NCBI GenBank assembly: GCA_964023285.1
Contig: CAXIEN010000102.1
Span: 2,871,528 to 2,935,527 of the forward strand
Origin: Larinioides sclopetarius
Taxonomy: Eukaryota
Length of the DNA stretch: 64,000 nucleotides
Direction of reading: 5' to 3'
The translations under genes and the position numbers were made by a program. The notes under the pieces are model-generated. The model was given only the letters and a program-made list of their open reading frames with translations, searched no databases and was not told the DNA's origin. This document shows positions 27,553 to 64,000 of this stretch, in pieces; position 1 is the first letter of the stretch, and each line of letters opens with the position of its first letter.

Positions 27553-30500
27553 CTAGCTGACCCGGCAAACGTTGTTTTGCCATGTAAATAATTTCTAGAG
27601 AATTTCTAGGGTAGAAAAAAAATAACTAACTTATTGTAAGTGTGTAAGGATGTGGTATATGAGTGAAAAAGGCATGGAGCGCTGTGAACGATGAGGGAAT
27701 ATAAAAATAACAAAACACCAAACATTATTTTTAAAATTTATTATAATTTATTTTAAGTAATAATTATTTATATCATTAATTCATTACATAATATTAATCT
27801 CTTAATGCTACAGCGTGAATAATATTTTTTGTTAGCAAGTCTTTAGCTAATACAAACAAACTTGATGGTTTACCCACTCGAGAGCATGCAACGTATAATT
27901 GTCCGTGTGAAAAACATGGTGTGCTCAAATCTAAGCCACAAACAGACATTGTTTGGCCTTGGGATTTACTAATAGTCATTGCAAATGCCAATCTAATCGG
28001 AAATTGAATACACTTAATTTGAGTTGGCACATCTGTGGGTATAATAGGTATACGTGGTATATATATATTTTCACCTCGAAACTTGTCATTTAAAATGGTG
28101 GCTTCGATAACGTTTTTCATTAATTTTTTAATTACTAATCACGTACCGTTGCACAGCCGTGGAGGGTTCAAATTACGAAGCAAAATAATTGGAGATCTAA
28201 CCTTCAATTGTGAGTTATGCGGTGGCATGCCTGGCAAATCCAGTGAGTTCAAAAACTCTGTTGGAAAATTTACAGTTTCAGTGGCATCGCAAACTGTATC
28301 AATAGATTTATATGATACCATGTCCCCCGGCAATAACTGTTGTATCTTCAGATTCAAAATGTTTTCCACACAATGTGTTCCACATTTTTTTGCCGCTAAA
28401 ATTGATCTTTCTGCAAGCCACTCGAGATTTATGTAATTCGTGTGTACATCGGGAAATATTTTTCCAATGAGAGCATCTTGCGATTCAATGATTGTGCAGA
28501 AATCAGTCGGTAATTTTACGCATCCAGTTTCATCTATAGTGACTTTTCCATCGTCGATATCTAAGAGTTGTTTTGAGAATGTTTCAGCGGATGGATCTTG
28601 AAGCATTTGAACGCGCATATTTACTTTCAGCTATACTTTTTCAACATTACGCCACAATGGCGATGATTTTAAGCAGGCGTTGATTTCATCAGCGTATGTT
28701 GAACGTGGAATGACGGGAAGTGTTTGTCTGAAGTCACCTGAAAGGACTAAGAGTGCCACCAAATAGTTTGTTGCTGTTTTTAATATCTTTCAATGTCCTG
28801 TTCAACGCCTCAAGCGAATGTTTGTGTGCCATGGTACATTCATCCCAGATGATAATTTTACACTGTTTCAGCACTGCGGCTATGGACGATTGTTCTTTTA
28901 TGCTGCACACTGCGTCAATGTTATTTTGAATATTTAGTGGTAGCTTAAATACTGAATGAGCTGCTCTGACTCCATCCAATAAAGTTGCCGCAATACCCGA
29001 TGATGCAACGGCCAATGCGATGCCATTATTTGATCGTATTTCGGCGAGAATTAGCGAAATAAAGAATGTCTTGCCAGTTCCACCTGGTGCATCTAAAAAG
29101 AACCCACCTTGTCCTGCTGAAACTGCGGCGAGCATAATGCGGTCGTAAATGGTTCTTTGTTCCTCATTCATTAGTGGGACATTGCGAGTAACAATCGCCG
29201 CCATTTCTACAGTGTTGTACTGCAGTTCACGATTCATTTCAGTGTTCATTAAATCAGTTGCACCTCGATTTGGCGAATTCATACCGAAATGACTGAGTGG
29301 TAAGTTGGCAATGATAATGCAAAGATCCTCAATCGCAATCAATGCTTCATTGTGCATATCGTCGCTGAATGTTATCTCGAGATCGTTACACTGTGTACAA
29401 TGTTGATGCAATATATCATCAGTCATTGAATCTTTGTGATTATCCCACAATATCTCTGCTCGGGCTGGAAAACATGTAGTCAACACTATAGCGAATAGTA
29501 GATGAATTTGTATTGCTGTACAGTTCAATGGTGCTTCAGCAAGCATACATTCCCACTGGTTGTCATCTTCCAGCAAGGCATGCATCTTTATACGTTAGAT
29601 ACTGTTGCCCATTCACTTTACGTATATCTTGAAATGACAATGGGCCAGTAACATTAACCAACAACAGTCGAAGATAAAAACACTCAGTCTGTCTTAGATT
29701 CACTGTAAATACTCGCCCAAGGCGTTTGATTTGAATAAATTGGGACATGCATCAACTGGTGAACCACGCAATTGCGCCATTCTCACACGCGCTCCAGTAT
29801 TTTCTTCCTAAACTTGTTCTTCGGTTCTTTGGGCTCTTCTATTTCGAATGCTTCTAGATTTATTTGTATCACGGCTTAAATTGGCCCCTTTGCGTTTTGT
29901 TGGCATTGTTCACTGTACAATACAAAACACACATAAATAGAACTGATTGAATTATTTAATGATGAAAATTATTATATTAATAATTTATTTTATCTTTGAT
30001 TACATTAAATATACATGTAAAAATTAGATAGTTTCACAAAAGCGAAAAATTTTATTTTTCTTAATTATATCGAAAATGCATATTGTTAGAAATAGTGAAA
30101 AAAAAAAATTCTGTAGAAGTTAGAGCTCTTATAAATAAACACACAAAAAAAAATTCCCAATTGTAATAAAAATCTAACTTTCACCGAATTCGTTTTTCAC
30201 CATTCCCAACAATATTTTCGTTATAAATACGAAAGAATAACGTATAAAAAGTAATTTATACTTACAACTCAATAGCCGTTGTTTGCGGGAACTCGTGACA
30301 CGTGTTGAGTATTTTAGAGGTTATGTAAATCACTTAATTAACTGATCGTGCGAATTACACTCAAAATTAATAATTTTATTAGTTATTAATAATTAATTAT
30401 ATTCAATAATATTAGTTATTAATAAATAAATAATAAAGTTACTTGAGAATATATTTGATATGAGAGTTACACTGAGATAGTGAAAATGTTTAACTACTAC

Positions 30501-46381: not shown

Positions 46382-46945
46382 TTAATATGTTCTAGGTAGA
46401 GCTGTAATCTAATGTACTTCTGCTTCCTAAGACTATGTTTCACTAAGAAATACACTACCCCAAATGTTGATGCCAATTCATTTTAAATTGACAATGACAT
46501 ATTACAAAGAGCAATCTGATAATATTGGATGAAAAATGCCAACATGTAACAAAATGTAAAATTCTTACCATAAACGTTAATTTTTAATCCTATATGAAAT
46601 GGATATCCTAATGGAAATAGATAATATAATGGATATGGAGCAGGCAAATGACGAATCAATAAGCAAAAATAGACTTATTCTGTTTAAGAATCTCCAAGGA
46701 AATTTAGGGCATTCAAAAAATAATTGTGAATGAAATTTAGAGCACCATACATTAAGTTGTCAGATTAAAGGAACGAAAATCACAAAACTACACAAGTGCT
46801 TTTTTTTTATAAAAAATCTTATCTCACCAACTCAAAAGTCACTTATTTTGTTACTAATTGGTAACTTTTTAAATTATTAATTAGTATCAAATTAATACCA
46901 ACACATGACAAACAATCACATTATTTAATACTCCATAAAACTTGC

Positions 46946-47264
46946 CTAGGTCTCCTTGGGCAACTCTTCCTGGGATACTTGGGATTCCTCATCAATGTAA
47001 GGGTTCTTGGTCGTCTAAATTGGACAGTAGTTCTAATTTTCCTAACTCTGGTTCCATGGGCTCCTTTAACTACTTTCTTCTTAGCTGCTAGAGCTTTTGC
47101 TTTAGCCTGGGCAGCACCTAACTTGCCTTTTCCCTTAGGGGCTACCTTTTCACCTTTACCTGCTGGCGCTGCAGCAGCTTTAGAAGCAGGAGGGACATTT
47201 TCTTTTTTTGTCTCCTTGGGTTTCTCTGTTTTTGCTGGCTTAGCAGCAGTGGCTGCTGCTTTTG
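46946..47264 (-). CDS. RpL23A: ribosomal protein L23a coding exon (N-terminal A/K/P-rich extension through ..[31 protein letters not shown]); initiator exon not located
   Basis: Acceptor tcttcag|CAAAAGCAGCAGCC. Translation: (A)[57 protein letters not shown], matching the uL23 region [37 protein letters not shown]. The exon ends AG|GCAAGT, an apparent GC-AG donor. The phase joins correctly to the next exon. Confidence 0.85.
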
Positions 47265-49825
47265 CTGAAGACAAGATATATAAAATTAGAATTGTTTCCT
47301 ATAATCACATCACAAATATTAAAACAATTATCTGGTTCTTCAAAAGCTGATTTTCTTCAATAAAATAAATTTTACATTTAAAAACTTAAAATAACCACAT
47401 TTTCAAGTTAATTCCTACATCTTAACAGTGGAATGGCTATCATTATATAAATACTAGTTGACAAAGTAACTTACTACATCTGAAAAAGTTCAAGATTTTT
47501 CTATATTTATATTAACAGTAATGACTATTTAAAAAAATGCTATAGGCACTGGTGACAAGAATATTGTATACTAAATTTGTGAATATTTATGAATCCAAGA
47601 GTTTACATTTAATTCAATATAATCTTCATCTTATAAAATTTGTATACATGGTGCAAATAGCCCCTTTGTTTTTCCCTGTTGACAAGGTTTGTTTTCATTT
47701 ACAAATCCCAACCCAGACGTGGATCTTTCCGCTAATCGGTTGGGCAAATCATGCGTTGCGAGAAATCTTCTTTTCATGAATTATTGATTTAAATAAGTTA
47801 GTGAAGATTAGAATACATCTCAATAGAAAAAAAACTGGCATTTGGTCGATTATAAATCCATATCGTCCTCAAATCACAGTGCATTCATTTTAGCGAGCAG
47901 GGTTAACATAGCAAACATGAGAGTTGCGTCGAATTTTCCTGGGGGTTGGCGAACTTAAGCGAGCAAGAGAAGGAGCCTCCGTTTTATAAATTTTAAGATT
48001 GATCAATGATGCAAAGAGAACATTTATAAAATAAAATTATACTTTACAGTTATTTTATGCAATCACCTAATTTAGATGGTAAGCATATTAAGAAATATTT
48101 GTTCTCCTTAAATGCGAAATTTATAGGCAAGAAAATAGCTCATCAATTTTTCGGTTTTCTGGAAATTTTATTTTGTCCTATGACATTTACTAATTATAAA
48201 AAGAAAATTTAAAGGTGATTTTTCTAACTAAAAATTTCACAGATAAATATGTTTAATGAGAACGCATATTTCTCAATAGGTATACCGTTTAAATTATATT
48301 AAATATTCAAGAATGTAATGATCTGTCTCCTATCCTATATAATTTTTGAATGATAAAAACCGAAATATGCGAACGGCAATAAAAATAATTCACAGATCCA
48401 GAAATTCCGGCTTTGAAAAAGGTTCAACTACGGATCACAACCACTCGTTATAGGAACATGCTACCGATTATAATTTTCTTAGTCTCTGTTGATATAAATT
48501 AATCATATCTTCACAAAATTGGCTTCTATGAACACACTACGAACTAAAGCAATCATTAAGTAAATATGGAAGTTAATAATCCGAATTATTATCTTTAAAA
48601 AGAAAATCTGAAATGTAGATTAATTAAGAGTTGTATTTAGGCATAAGTAGAAAGATATAACGATGTCAATCGGTATTTTCAGTTTTTCTTTTATTAATAA
48701 ATTAGAATAAAAATAATGTAAATTAAAATAGAATCAAAAGACGAATTCAAGATTAAATGAATCTGCAAATTGGCATACGTAACCACAAGCGACAGGATTT
48801 AGGCTTAAGAACGATGATAAAGCCTCGATTAATCTCTTTACATAAGTACTTATAAACTGCATATTGATATCCAAATAAAGTCGATGGTAATTACACAATA
48901 AGAAAACTCGCATATAAATTAATATATCTAATAACACAATTCGACATGAATATAACCACGAGGTGGGATATCCGAACAGCCATGTTAAAAAAAAATAATA
49001 CAACATATATAAAATATTAAAGAACTTATAAGCAAAAATATTACATAAAAATCAATTCAAACTAATATTAAAATAAAATTACGTTTTTCTGATGCTCCTT
49101 TCTTTGATTTCGGACCCATTTTTATTCAATATAACTCTTACACCGCGTTAGAAACACGTTTTCAATTTTTCCAAATCCAGAGTCAGTCACAGAGAAACAG
49201 TTGTGTTGCCAATCTCCTACTGACGAATAAAATAAATTATTTGATAATTTATTTTCATGCCTTTCCAAAAAATTTCATGATGATTTAACAAATAGATGTA
49301 ATAGCTTAGTTCTCTATACTCTATTTACGTTAAAATAATTTTTTTTAATAAATTTGGATTTAAAATTGTAAATGATTAATGTGCAGTTACAGACCTGCAG
49401 CACTATAGTGTTAGCTATCATTACAATAAAGAAGTTACAAGATTTTTTTTATTTTTTAATCGATTCTGCATGCTAAAATTAGCCTCTATACAAAATTTGA
49501 GGCTGAACGAGATTTTTTTTTCATTTACAAAAAAAATATTAAAAATTGTCTTTTTCGAAGAGTGCGAAGACGAGTAGATTGGACCTTGGTGGAAGTGGGT
49601 GCCTTCGAGGTAAAAGCTGACAGCGTGCAGCCAATGATATTTCGAAATTGTTCATCAGCTGCGGAGATTGACCAATGGCTGACGCCAAAAAATCACGTGT
49701 CAGCGTATTTGACATCACATGCATAAGGTCCATTCAAAGTGTGACGTCGCACCACATGAACTCCGCTTGCGGGTGATAGCGCTAGCAATGAAAAGCTTGC
49801 GGTGTTAAAACTATCGTATTCTTTC

Positions 49826-58200: not shown

Positions 58201-59707
58201 AGCTTAGATAAATAAAATTTGGTTCGATGTATTATAATATTAATCGTATAGCCGTGGCTAATTTTCAATTCAATTGTGTTAATAAATGACATTTAAATTA
58301 TATATTCAGTTTTATAACTATTGTAGCTCTAAGCACATGCGTAATGAGAGCAATTTTTGTGCAGTGGCTTCCTGATGAAAAATTCTTATTCCCTCTTTTT
58401 CTTCCATTTTAGTTTCTTTTTCTCCCTTTGGAAAATTCTGAACATACTTGGATTATTTAGCTTTATTTTGTTGTTTATACGCATAGGTACAAGTGGGTTT
58501 CTGGTTAAAGAGCAGATTACTTTTGAATTTTTATCCTGTTTATAATTATTATAGTTGGTTTGAATCTTTTTTTCCATCTTCGTTTGAGGATGGGAAACGG
58601 CATAATTTTGGGATAGTATATGAGAATGTTTCTGGGAGACAACTTTCACTGATTTTATAAATTTATTTTTAAAATGGTAAAAGAGAAAAAGATAATCGAG
58701 GTTATTGGAAAAATGAAGAATAAAAATTATCTTATTTTGAATTTAAACAATGTTTCCAAACAGATGCTGGCTAGCTGATTTTCTATTTCACCATTGCTCC
58801 TTTTGAAAATTTATTGTATCATCTCTAGTGACAGCTCACTCGCTTATTAAAAAACAGTGCTCCCAGAGACCTCTGTTGGAGGAAATTTTGCTCTGTTTAT
58901 TTTATGTAATAATAGTTTACTACAAATTGATAGTTTTGAGGTACAAACAAAAAATTTGGGAAAATTTTTTATGTTTTTTTTTAAAACTATAACATAACAA
59001 AACTCCAGTAAAAAATACTGGTCAAAAACATCAGATTTGTAACCAGCACCCACCGTAAAAAAAGGCCTTTTCCAGAATTGGATTTTTAAAAAAAATGTAC
59101 TTAACGTGGTCGTTAAAAATGTTTTTCTAGTTGATATCCATCACTAGATGTCGTTGATCGCAACTCGGTGAGATTGATTTGCTTACGTTTATGGTAACCC
59201 TGCCTTGCCTGGGCGGAGAAAAAAAAATGCTTTGCGCATGCGCTCTTACTGAATCTGAGAAAAATTTATCTGTCCCATCACCTCGATTATCTGTCCTGAA
59301 CGCGCGTTTCAGATATCATCGAAGCATACGGGTGAGTAGAATATGGGCATTGAGTGTGTGTGGGAGAGGGGGCGTCAAGGTCACATGTTGAATTGGATCT
59401 CCTCCAGCACATAGTAACATGTTTTCTTTTCGTTAACAAAAGTTAATAATAGTGGGGAGATTCGGCAATTTATTTTTTTGCGTCAGAAGCTTTATTTTAA
59501 ATTTTATTTATCAAAATAATGTCATAGAGCTGGGATAGTAGATAGAGAGATTGCAACCCTATTCAGCGCGATGACAAAATAAAATCAAGTGACTTGTGGA
59601 CAGAATTGGTGTTCACTGCAACCGTATTCTTCTTCCTCCATTGCTGATCTATGGCATCTAGTTCGCTGATTATGACTGTGTAAGTTTAAAACCTGTTAAA
59701 ATCATAG

Positions 59708-59778
59708 GGCATTATTGTTGTGCGTTTGGATGCAAAGAAGAAGTTTCTAAGGATTGCAAGGTGTCGTTTCACAAGAAG
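59708..59778 (+). CDS. candidate exon encoding the N-terminal half of a THAP zinc-finger domain (..HYCCAFGCKEEVSKDCKVSFHKK)
   Basis: Acceptor atcatag|GG. The translation CCAFGC-x9-CKVSFHK matches the THAP C-x2-4-C .. SFH(K/R)FP pattern. Donor AAG|gtacaa. A possible upstream exon ends at 59679 (ctATGGCATCTAGTTCGCTGATTATGACTGT|gtaagt), but its phase does not join cleanly. Confidence 0.35.
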
Positions 59779-60166
59779 GTACAATAAACATATTCTATTT
59801 ATAAACATTTAGAATCAATTTATAATTCCGTACCTTCGAATACTCGGGGATTTTTATATTATAATTGAATAGTATTTCATAATTTGCTTTAGTTATTGCA
59901 TTTAATTTAGTAAACTGGTTATTAAGCATCGTTTTAACTGATGTAACTGCAGTATATTTTCTTACTTGCTTTATTTTAAACTTGAATATGTTATCCGTAT
60001 TTGGCGTGACTTTTTCTCGCCAATGTAAGTGTACATAATAAACATTACTGACAAATTTTTCTTTAATGGAAGTTATTTGAACACTAAATCTTTATTATTT
60101 CATATATGTCTTTTTCCTCGTTATTATTTTAATTGTGACCTTATGAACTTCAATATCATCATTATA

Positions 60167-61674
60167 CACTCATGTCCATAAATTAAGGATAAGTCAGAAT
60201 CACACAGAAATTGAACTCTAAAATAAAAATTTCACCTGTAGAATTATCACACACATCTTGAAGAAGAATATGCAAATTACAGGAAACCACCAGATGGCGC
60301 GGATAGTACGTCACAATGACGAGAGTGTAAGAGAGGGGTATATAAGGAATGGTGGCAAAGAAGTAAAATTGTTCACAAGCGCTTTAAAAGCCTTTTAGTG
60401 CAATAACCGCATAGTTATGGCACAAAGGAAGCATTTGGATGATTTTTTACGTGGTAAAATTATCGGACGACTGGAATGTGGACGTACCCAGCTGGAAGTA
60501 TCCGAGGAATTTGGAATCGCCCAGAGTGTCATCTCCAGGCTTTGGCAACGATTCCAAGATGATGGTAATGTGAGTAGATGTTACAGCACAGGTCAGACCC
60601 GAGTTACAAAGCCGAATGAGGACCGGTATTTGGCAGTTACTGCCAAAAGAAACAGACGGAGCACAGCATCAGACCTGTCTCGTCAGCTCTCTTCAGCTAC
60701 CGGTACGACAGTTTCAAGGCAGACCGTGTACAGACGCTTAGGGCACATTGGTCTAAATGCTCGTAGGCCTGTCAGATGTGTTCCACTCACCGCAACTCAC
60801 TGTCGCCTGCGATTAGCCTGGAGTAGAGAGCATGCATTGGGGACACCGCAACAGTGGTCTTGTGTGATGCTTTCCGACGAGTCCAGGTTTAGTTTGCAGT
60901 CTGATTCTCGCCAGACTTTCATATGGAGAGCTCCAGGTACCCGTTACCACCAAGAGAACACCATTGAACGACACCGTTATGGTGGTGCAGGATGGCTCGT
61001 TTGGGGAGGAATTATTCTTGGTTCCAGAACTGACCTGCATGTTCAGAGTGTAACGATGACAGGCCACATCTATCGGGATGTCATTCTGGAACAATATGTA
61101 CCTTTGTTTCGGGGCGCCATGGGTGCTGAATTTCTGTTTATAGATGACAACACCCGTCCTCACCGTGCAAACATTGTAGACGAATGCCTTCAATCGGAGG
61201 ATATCACCCGTATGGATTGGCCAGCATACTCACCGGACTTGAATCCAATAGAGCATGTGTGGGATATGCTTGGCCGACGAATTGCAGACCGTCAACCCCC
61301 TCCCACCTGTCTACCGGAACTTCAGAGGGCATTGCTTGATGATTGGTGTAATATTCCCCAAGATCAGATTGATAATTTGATACTCAGCATGCCTAGGGTT
61401 GTAAGGCCTGTATTGCATCGTCCGTCCGGGAGACATACTCCGTATTAACCATCATACTAACCATGTTATACTGTTTTTTGTAAATAGGTTCTTTTTTGAA
61501 ATTTGCTCCAGGGAGTAAAAATCGCAATTTTTATTAATTATGTCAAACATATAGCATCTTTTTGGCTCTTTACCTTTTGTTTAATAAATAGACTTTACAA
61601 ATAAGTCAAATTTGTTTTGCTTCTGTCTCTTTCTTTGCCTGAACTTCATTATCCTGAATTTATGGACATGAGTG
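60167..61674 (+). mobile_element. complete Tc1-family (DD34E) DNA transposon with TA target-site duplication
   Basis: TIRs: cactcatgtccataaattaaggataa at 60167 and ttatcctgaatttatggacatgagtg ending at 61674, 25 of 26 matching. Flanked by TA at 60165-60166 and 61675-61676. Contains an intact transposase ORF. Confidence 0.9.
60417..61448 (+). CDS. Tc1-like transposase, 343 aa, uninterrupted
   Basis: N-terminal paired-like helix-turn-helix (GRLECGRTQLEVSEEFGIAQSVISRLWQRF). Catalytic D in VMLSDESRF and D in FIDDNTRPHRA. Then 34 residues to the E in WPAYSPDLNPIEHVWD, giving DD34E. No internal stops. Confidence 0.9.
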   Translation: MAQRKHLDDFLRGKIIGRLECGRTQLEVSEEFGIAQSVISRLWQRFQDDGNVSRCYSTGQTRVTKPNEDRYLAVTAKRNRRSTASDLSRQLSSATGTTVSRQTVYRRLGHIGLNARRPVRCVPLTATHCRLRLAWSREHALGTPQQWSCVMLSDESRFSLQSDSRQTFIWRAPGTRYHQENTIERHRYGGAGWLVWGGIILGSRTDLHVQSVTMTGHIYRDVILEQYVPLFRGAMGAEFLFIDDNTRPHRANIVDECLQSEDITRMDWPAYSPDLNPIEHVWDMLGRRIADRQPPPTCLPELQRALLDDWCNIPQDQIDNLILSMPRVVRPVLHRPSGRHTPY

Positions 61675-64000
61675 TAAATGAAATAGTGCATTTGAAAACA
61701 AATGCATGCGCAATTAAGAATTATGTTTGATAAAATTTTATAAAAAAGTTTAAGTGAAAATAACATGTTTTTCAATATATTTCAATTACCTACTGAAAAG
61801 ATCTAAAAAGAAACTTAAGATTTAAAAGAAATTTTCAAAAATTATTATAATGGACAGCTTTTTGATACTTAAGAATAAATAATTAAGGTTACAATGATTA
61901 AAGTCCTCTAAAAATAATTAAGTTATCTCTGGTCACAATTCTTAGAAAGAAATATAAAATTTTTATATTAAAGTATTACTGGTACATCGTATTGTTCTAA
62001 GAAACAATTAATAGATTATGCTTAAATTTACACAAATTTTAATTTAAAAAAAAACAAGAATATCTAATGAGAAAATCACACAATGTCTATATATCCCCAT
62101 TTTTAAATTCCATGCTTACTTCAAATGATATGAATGCATGACATTAGCACATAACATGAAAAGCATTAACATATCAGTACATATTCTTCGAAACAAAAGT
62201 CTATTAGCTCCGTTTTATGTGTTCTTAAAAATGTCACGTATTTAAAATAATACCAATAACATTTTAACTTGTAAAGTTAAACTACTTTTTCTACGTAAAT
62301 AAGAAAATTAAAATGATTTCTTAAGAAAAAACTACTCTAAATATTTGCAGAAGAACGGAATTAAATATGATTTCGATCACCAGTCTGATATCGGTGTTAT
62401 GAGAGAAAGGCATTTTTAATCCAGTGTTAATTTGATTAAAGCAATTTGTAGTAAAAGTCCTTAAGCTAATAACTATTATATGCACGTTTCTATTCCGAAA
62501 GTTGATAATTTCGTTTCTGGCAGAAAGTTGTATTCTTCCATTATAGTTTATTCATTCTTGCGTGTCCTTAAATTGTGAAAAGACTATACTAACGAATTTT
62601 GAAACACATAAATTTCGGGAATAGATATTTTTATTCCTCAGCTGAACAGGAAGTAAAAAAAAATAATAATAACTGAAAATAGCATTCTCAGTATACAAAA
62701 TGATTAACGTTTTCCGAATAGTAGATGTAGTCAAATAATATTCTTACAACAAGTTGCAAGCCAAGTCCACCCTAAAAAAGTTACAGTGCGAAAGTTTTGC
62801 GCGCTCTGCAGACTCGTGATATTTCGCCAAAAAGGTGTCCCAGCTCTTACCCAACCCGCAAGTCACGTGAGTAATTTTGGGTCCACTGCTTTCGAGGAGA
62901 AATATAGAACTGACTTCCTCTATTTATCCCAACTCTATGAATAATGTTTTTGAAACTGGAACTATGAAACATTCATTTTGGAAAATTGATCCTAAAATGT
63001 TTTTATTTCTAAAATTGAATACGTTTTTCTTTTCTTTTTTAATTAATTGATTACTTACATGTTATCTAAAATGTTATATAATGTTTTTTATTCAACATCT
63101 TTTTGAAGAATTAATGCAATGGTAATTTATAAATATTTTACTTAACAATAATAGTAACGGTCATTTATTACTGATCAAAAACAATAAAAAACTTTAAGAC
63201 AGCAAAATTTTTGTCACCAAAGTTAAAGCGTTCAGATATTGCTTTTTTTTTACAACTTTGGTAATATTAAACAACAAATATCGCATTTTTCAGAACAGGA
63301 AGCTACAACCGTCTTGTACGACATTGTATGAAAACTTCTTTGATTTATGAAATACATTCCTTTGAATTATGCCTTGTGTCTGTCCCTTTTTGTTCAGAGA
63401 ACACAATTAGTCAAAAATGAAATGACAAGATGAATGAAATGAAAGATTTGGTTTTGTTACCAAAATTATAGATCAGCATATAATTTTGGATTTTGTCCAT
63501 CAAACGGAAAGGGTAAAAAATATACTAATGAACTAATACAATGTGTTACTAAAGAATTGAATACAAAATGCATGGGTTATAAAAGGGTACAAGAAATTCG
63601 AGAAGGGAACACTCACATTTTTTAAAAAAAAATTTCAGCTATAAAGTGCATGGGGAAATGCCGAACAACATCTTGAATATACAAAATAATTATTAAATCA
63701 TTACTAAAAATAAAGGAGGTAGTCTTTGTGTATATTGGCGCTCTACGGGACCAAAGGATTGAGAGCCACAAAATGTGGAATAAGCATATTTTGGAATTAG
63801 GGATTACGTACCTAAGAGCCCTTTTTGTGAAATTTTAAGTAATTAAAAAGTAAGTGAACATAGCGCTTTTCCTTAATAACTTTCGACTTATCGATATATT
63901 CCGATTTACTTCCAATATTAATAACTATATAACTCTTTTCTGCTTACACATATTTATACTTATTTATTCCATATTTCCTAAGGGTTTATGCACTGTCAGT

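Follow-up and report, generated by a model that had tools for sequence, protein, structure and literature searches.

The transposase of Tc1/mariner superfamily elements acts as a dimer: its paired-like domain binds the terminal inverted repeats (TIRs), and the element is then cut out and reinserted at TA. The ends of Sleeping Beauty (SB) are long IR/DR structures of about 230 bp. In the SB transposase, the AT-hook GRRR contributes to specific substrate recognition (PMC7827188), and the divergent GRKP carried by Bari1 indicates that a GRPR-type motif is not absolutely rigid (PMC3828361). In spiders, Tc1/mariner was among the top three TE groups of every assembly compared (PMC8693713), and in one spider genome, where many of its copies are of low divergence, its share is 31.5% (PMC13172734). 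Because of this abundance, a complete Tc1 copy in a spider genome is expected and unremarkable.

The element described here lies in a 64-kb window (the whole stretch of DNA that was analysed, 64,000 nucleotides). Read directly from the sequence, it is 1508 bp long (60167-61674), has 26-bp inverted ends matching at 25 of 26 positions and carries TA on each side. The inverted-repeat search returned arms at 60165-60192 and 61649-61676, which are 28 nt long with the flanking TA and 96% complementary. The 64-kb window contained exactly two occurrences of the 26-nt TIR pattern, one per end and in opposite orientation, and 100 dinucleotide-preserving shuffles contained none. The size, TIRs and TA flanks given in the preliminary description were thus borne out. 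The positions of all features are listed in Table 1.

Table 1 Features of the Tc1 element, with positions counted from the first nucleotide of the window.
Feature	Position	Strand	Basis
Left TA target-site duplication	60165..60166		Read directly from the sequence
Left TIR, CACTCATGTCCATAAATTAAGGATAA	60167..60192	+	Inverted-repeat and pattern searches, comparison with relatives
Upstream in-frame stretch, equivalent to the 49-aa N-terminal extension of 391-aa A. ventricosus gene models	60271..60416	+	Comparison with relatives
TATATAA, putative TATA box, 72 nt 5' of the ATG	60339..60345	+	Element position 173, same in the relatives checked
Transposase ORF, 343 aa (family consensus 342 aa)	60417..61448	+	Single ATG-to-stop ORF, domain and homologue matches
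GQTR instead of family GRPR, codons 59-62, AT-hook-like linker between HTH subdomains	60591..60602	+	Consensus comparison
Catalytic D154	60876..60878	+	Alignment with SB100X columns
Catalytic D244	61146..61148	+	Alignment with SB100X columns
Catalytic E279, 34 residues past D244	61251..61253	+	Alignment with SB100X columns
Frameshifted segment	61398..61424	+	Alignment with relatives
AATAAA, putative polyadenylation signal, 135 nt past the stop codon	61583..61588	+	Position conserved in relatives
Right TIR	61649..61674	-	Inverted-repeat and pattern searches, comparison with relatives
Right TA target-site duplication	61675..61676		Read directly from the sequence

The same TIR bounds the relatives of the element, and TA also flanks two independent Araneus ventricosus insertions from the same Tc1 family. 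The TIRs of the family consensus are paired along 27 nt, and 25 of these 27 positions are paired in the window copy. The sole mismatch within the 26-bp TIRs, at 61656, is a private change of this copy, since all relatives have T there, and a private T>G at 60193 affects position 27 of the left end. Judged from the flanks of the insertion, the empty site would read ...ATCATCATTA-TA-AATGAAATAG... The G+C content of the ORF region is ca. 50%, as compared to a window average of 29%. Searches with tblastn and blastn found no second copy or fragment of this family elsewhere in the 64-kb window.

Pfam searches with the 343-aa ORF product gave matches to HTH_Tnp_Tc3_2 at residues 69-139 (2.5e-17) and to DDE_3 at residues 151-293 (4.7e-13), while weak matches to HTH_32 and HTH_3 covered residues 18-108. 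The profile of the spider family also matched the chain of the SB DNA-binding domain, 5UNK (E = 0.005). The window ORF has the bipartite paired-like N-terminal helix-turn-helix (HTH) domain of the Tc1 family, and the N-terminal helix-turn-helix proposed previously was recovered in the HTH_Tnp_Tc3_2 match. The catalytic triad D154/D244/E279 shows spacings of 89 and 34, that is, DD34E, and its residues fall in the aligned SB100X columns, confirming the earlier assignment to the DD34E Tc1 class with all three catalytic residues at canonical spacing. A basic KRNRR stretch is present along with the triad and both HTH regions. The direct sequence search recovered a single relative of known structure, the SB100X catalytic domain (5CR4; E = 5e-26). 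With the family profile, the match to SB, a Tc1-family structure, reached 2.4e-29 versus 1.9e-5 for the mariner Mos1, a comparison at the level of profile matches. On its protein sequence, the element is classed as a Tc1-family (DD34E) member of the Tc1/mariner superfamily.

Outside the ORF, TATATAA would act as a promoter element and AATAAA as a polyadenylation signal, and there is no ATG between the TATATAA box and 60417. In the window copy, the upstream in-frame stretch is closed by a TAG at 60396-60398, which arose by a private C>T. We rejected the reading of this 49-codon extension as coding sequence truncated by the TAG. The stretch is likewise closed by an in-frame stop in the lineage of relatives encoding protein P0004, and it contains the conserved TATATAA; for these reasons it most likely represents 5' UTR/promoter instead of coding sequence. 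The 391-aa models of the relatives (L008 and L009 of A. ventricosus) are probably N-terminal overextensions, an annotation artefact. On the opposite strand, a 126-aa antisense ORF lies within the transposase gene (60813-61193, - strand), and nothing about it points beyond chance.

The protein search, in which up to 8,000 candidates were scored, returned at least 6,698 proteins matching the window transposase at E ≤ 1e-10. The best 120 matches came nearly all from A. ventricosus, Trichonephila clavipes and Stegodyphus mimosarum, with three from sequencing-run assemblies, and the highest amino-acid identities to the window protein were 91-93%. The nearest protein clusters comprised 365, 158, 297 and 186 members. 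An exact look-up of the 343-aa window protein returned nothing on record. The window copy has A134 and F168, which are the Araneus-type states. The element is one insertion of a high-copy, spider-wide Tc1/DD34E family, of its Araneus-type subfamily, and represents a known, already annotated kind of repeat.

The species consensus proteins of this family, derived from the retrieved sequences, are close to one another: that of Araneus equals the family consensus, that of Trichonephila differs from it at 2 of 342 positions and that of Stegodyphus at 24 of 342. At the level of protein sequence, these small differences suggest long persistence or horizontal spread among spiders; on a more speculative reading, the near-identity of the Araneus and Trichonephila consensus proteins and the 93% identity of Stegodyphus would reflect recent horizontal spread. 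Individual copies of T. clavipes are far more decayed than those of A. ventricosus. Besides, two host gene models contain or cluster with the Tc1 transposase, namely the 515-aa 'tyrosine decarboxylase' of T. clavipes (P0093) and the 1297-aa 'ABC sub-family A member 17' of A. ventricosus (P0175). Both are probably chimeric annotations resulting from intronic or adjacent Tc1 insertions.

Nine related elements were compared with the window copy at the DNA level: seven contigs of ca. 1.5 kb from seven samples (L001-L007) and two genomic copies of A. ventricosus (L008 and L009). One and the same 342-aa protein, P0004, is encoded by all of L001-L007, whose DNA identity among themselves is 99.9-100%. 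Several of these contigs end at the TIRs or a few nucleotides from them, and one of the samples is labelled as a metagenome. Contigs that break at the TIRs and carry identical ORFs are the signature of a collapsed young repeat, here a very young, high-copy P0004 lineage, and the family therefore looks recently active elsewhere. The TIR-to-TIR length was 1505 bp in the five relatives complete at both ends, 1506 bp in a sixth (L009) and 1508 bp in the window copy, which shares 97.4% DNA identity with L008 and 95.7% with the P0004 lineage.

A change was regarded as private when the window copy differs at a position where three other, mutually agreeing sequences concur; these copies come from other assemblies and not from the host genome. 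By this definition, the window copy has 24 private substitutions, a 1-bp deletion and a 4-bp insertion; for the two A. ventricosus copies, the same criterion yields 13 and 16 private substitutions. The divergence of the window copy from the inferred ancestor is ca. 1.6% at the nucleotide level. The ORF of this ancestor, deduced from positions at which the outgroup sequences agree, has a translation identical to the 342-aa consensus built from 20 aligned family proteins. Identity to the consensus protein was 93% for the window copy, as compared to 96-98% for full-length annotated A. ventricosus copies.

Such low private divergence, the complete structure (TIRs, TA flanks, open ORF and DD34E triad) and the very recent activity of the family elsewhere, seen in the near-identical TIR-bounded contigs of seven samples, would fit an autonomous, currently active Tc1, in which the open ORF specifies a functional transposase able to bind the TIRs of the element and to mobilise it. 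We consider this very unlikely, because the coding sequence is damaged in ways that an ORF read alone does not reveal. The preliminary description had reported a 343-aa ORF without stops or frameshifts, and the ORF is indeed open when read alone; the alignment with the nine relatives, however, disclosed a compensated pair of frameshifts. Between 61397 and 61398, the only C of GGCG has been lost by a 1-bp deletion, and a 4-bp insertion at 61419-61422, located 22 nt from the deletion, is a tandem duplication of CGTC. The two indels (-1/+4) cancel each other, so that nine out-of-frame codons, VVRPVLHRP, replace the eight consensus codons RCKACIAS before the frame resumes at SGRHTPY. The affected stretch includes a C-terminal motif with counterparts elsewhere in the superfamily: in profile searches, PRRCKACIASSG of the family aligns with PERWEKCVASDG of Mos1 and PKRLTQVKQFKG of SB100X. 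AlphaFold2 models of the window protein and the consensus-like P0004, built with 20-sequence alignments, had mean pLDDT values of 32 and 34 and were uninformative on the C-terminal helix.

The occurrence of both indels within 22 nt might instead mean that they, and perhaps some of the substitutions, are assembly or sequencing errors and that the true copy is nearer to the consensus. Small indels are a typical error of long-read assemblies. This explanation is highly improbable, since the insertion is a clean CGTC tandem duplication and not a homopolymer-length error, and the deletion concerns the sole C of GGCG. Errors of the indel type would also leave the 24 private substitutions unexplained, three of which are adjacent within the GRPR codons, and the 15 replaced codons would remain even without the indels.

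These three adjacent changes, at 60595-60597 (codons 60-61), convert GRPR into GQTR. The window copy thus lacks a GRPR-like AT-hook linker, which is a defect of this copy and no bar to its membership of the family. In total, 15 codons carry private replacements, all of them at residues on which the consensus proteins of Araneus, Trichonephila and Stegodyphus agree. The replacements named as private are R14K, L32F, R60Q, P61T, T65K, Y114N, W142G, F152L and R166Q, and further along the protein H227Y, R229P, M242I, A246T, A291D, R303Q and E309D. None of the 15 falls on the 24 positions that vary between Araneus and Stegodyphus. Since the replacements avoid naturally variable positions, they strike residues that functional lineages keep. 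Neither GQTR nor RVVRP was present in any of the 178 retrieved family proteins. Shared ancestry of some changes with P0038, which has 'PVLHRP', or with other proteins in which individual private residues occur here and there, such as P0138 with R166Q and A291D, was considered and rejected in favour of independent origins: no protein shares more than two of the changes, and none is more than ca. 91% identical to the window protein.

The loss of GRPR and the replacement of 13 other family-invariant residues, including W142G, Y114N and F152L, the last lying two residues before D154, further argue against a currently active Tc1. Of random replacements in an enzyme, roughly a fifth to a third abolish its activity, and 15 replacements together with a scrambled motif would therefore leave little chance of full activity.

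The private coding changes comprise 17 nonsynonymous nucleotides (15 codons) and three synonymous ones, against 785 nonsynonymous and 241 synonymous sites. The resulting dN/dS is ca. 1.7; an omega of 1 was not rejected (P = 0.27), while an omega of 0.3 or lower was (P ~ 1e-3). The private changes thus show no purifying selection, as expected of a transposon copy drifting after insertion, and a dN/dS of ca. 1.7 counts further against a working transposase. In simulations, ca. 38% of neutral copies with 20 random substitutions kept the ORF open, and an open frame at such divergence is therefore weak evidence of function. Moreover, the spider proteomes contain hundreds of open copies that are nearer to the consensus (96-98%) than the window copy (93%). 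The premise of the preliminary description that an open ORF is rare among such copies does not hold in view of these numbers.

That the ORF has stayed open despite the substitutions and two indels could also be taken to indicate a domesticated transposase, held open by selection for a host function. We regard this as scarcely credible. Both TIRs and the TA duplication are retained, the private changes bear no mark of purifying selection and fall on conserved residues, and a copy only ca. 1.6% from its ancestor is too young to need selection to keep its frame open.

Based on these results, we consider, with a probability of roughly 0.8, that the window element is a young, neutrally decaying full-length Tc1 copy whose ORF is open by chance and which is most likely non-autonomous. 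The copy would have inserted at a TA dinucleotide, as suggested by its TA flanks and the known mechanism of the superfamily. After insertion, it would have drifted neutrally, acquiring private substitutions at ca. 1.6% of its positions and two small indels, which by coincidence bring the frame back. Since the indels restore the frame and the drift is neutral, the ORF would be open by chance and not maintained. A consensus-like ORF without frameshifts and with intact motifs, as expected of an autonomous transposon, is not found in the window copy. The loss of GRPR, the scrambled C-terminal motif and the 13 further replaced codons together make self-driven transposition most likely impossible, and the protein encoded by this copy is, as judged from its sequence, probably inactive or severely impaired despite the DDE triad. 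The ends are near-intact, and mobilisation in trans is therefore still conceivable; the element could be mobilised in this way given functional host copies.

Several observations count against regarding this copy as dead. The copy has kept its catalytic triad, the two HTH regions and the basic KRNRR stretch, and a divergence of only ca. 1.6% marks the copy as young. GRPR-type motifs tolerate variation, as the GRKP of Bari1 illustrates (PMC3828361). Since the reference copies come from other genomes, some of the 'private' changes could be common to a host-specific subfamily that has propagated. We give little credence to the view that the copy, or the host subfamily that it represents, would still be transposition-competent despite the remodelled C-terminus and GQTR. 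If it were true, the Araneus-type spider Tc1 family would be naturally active and able to tolerate changes at the C-terminus, and might serve as a native transposon tool in spiders.

The earlier characterisation of the element as intact and possibly active is thus sustained for its ends and its catalytic triad, but not for its coding sequence, in view of the C-terminal frameshift, the loss of GRPR, the 13 further replacements and the lack of purifying selection. Similarly, the suggestion of recent activity fits the family, which looks recently active, while its derivation from the intactness of the window copy is weakened. These results call for caution, as an open ORF and a correct DDE triad do not prove that a transposon copy is intact; the compensated frameshift and neutral decay became visible through comparison with the family consensus and are invisible from the ORF alone. 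In genome annotation, the element is best masked as a Tc1 repeat rather than treated as a gene. As a discovery it carries little weight, being an abundant spider repeat of a family annotated hundreds of times in public spider proteomes.

Upstream of the element, the peptide YCCAFGCKEEVSKDCKVSFHK at 59686-59775 matched residues 4-24 of THAP1 at a borderline E of 0.012. It belongs to a stop-to-stop segment at 59662-59784 (+ strand) that has no in-frame ATG, and Pfam returned nothing for this segment at E ≤ 1. No convincing downstream exon with the rest of the THAP domain was found between the element and the window end, and the placement of the element in an intron of a THAP-like gene, as suggested in the preliminary description, is accordingly tentative. 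The 'RFPNS...' frame at 62708-62941 was rejected as the THAP remainder because a suitably placed acceptor site is missing and Pfam did not match the frame to THAP. Just upstream of the THAP-like segment, at about 59100-59400, there is a stretch richer in G+C (0.44). Elsewhere in the window, two adjacent ORFs of 283 aa and 159 aa at 28139-29585 (- strand) encode parts of a PIF1-like helicase (Pfam PIF1, 3.7e-40; Pif1_2B, 1e-11), and their split arrangement points to the decay of a Helitron-type or PIF1-like repeat. An ORF at 46921-47274 (- strand) contains a Ribosomal_L23eN domain (1e-23) and resembles the N-terminal exon of a gene for ribosomal protein L23a.

Among known systems, the closest to the window element are the 'Tcb1/Tcb2 transposase' genes of A. 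ventricosus (e.g. GBM34711.1, here P0001, on contig BGPR01000767.1), which belong to the same family and share 97.4% DNA identity over the whole element. These A. ventricosus copies and the window copy have the same TIR and TA flanks, and their TATATAA and AATAAA positions match. Unlike P0001, the window copy is 1508 and not 1505 bp long and carries the -1/+4 frameshift, GQTR and 13 more replacements; its identity to the consensus protein is 93%, whereas that of P0001 is 98%. The names 'Tcb1/Tcb2/Tc3' that database sources have given to the spider proteins are taken to be best-hit labels and not statements of orthology.

The SB transposase is only distantly related in sequence. The catalytic domain of SB100X (PDB 5CR4) nevertheless aligns end to end with the window ORF, with matching SDE, DN and NPIE columns, and its final PxR...G..T.Y motif aligns with the C-terminus of the family. 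SB likewise has this paired-like DNA-binding domain, in which the AT-hook linker reads GRRR (PMC7827188). In contrast to SB, the spider family has simple TIRs of 26-27 bp, and the window copy lacks the basic linker motif and has its C-terminal motif scrambled. Mos1 mariner (PDB 3HOS and 2F7T; DD34D) belongs to the same superfamily and, like the window element, duplicates a TA target; the C-terminal half of its catalytic domain aligns, but its third catalytic residue is D where the window ORF has E, and the match is much weaker than that of SB. Tc1 and Tc3 of Caenorhabditis, compared by architecture alone, share with the window element the combination of HTH_Tnp_Tc3_2 and DDE_3 and the DD34E spacing.
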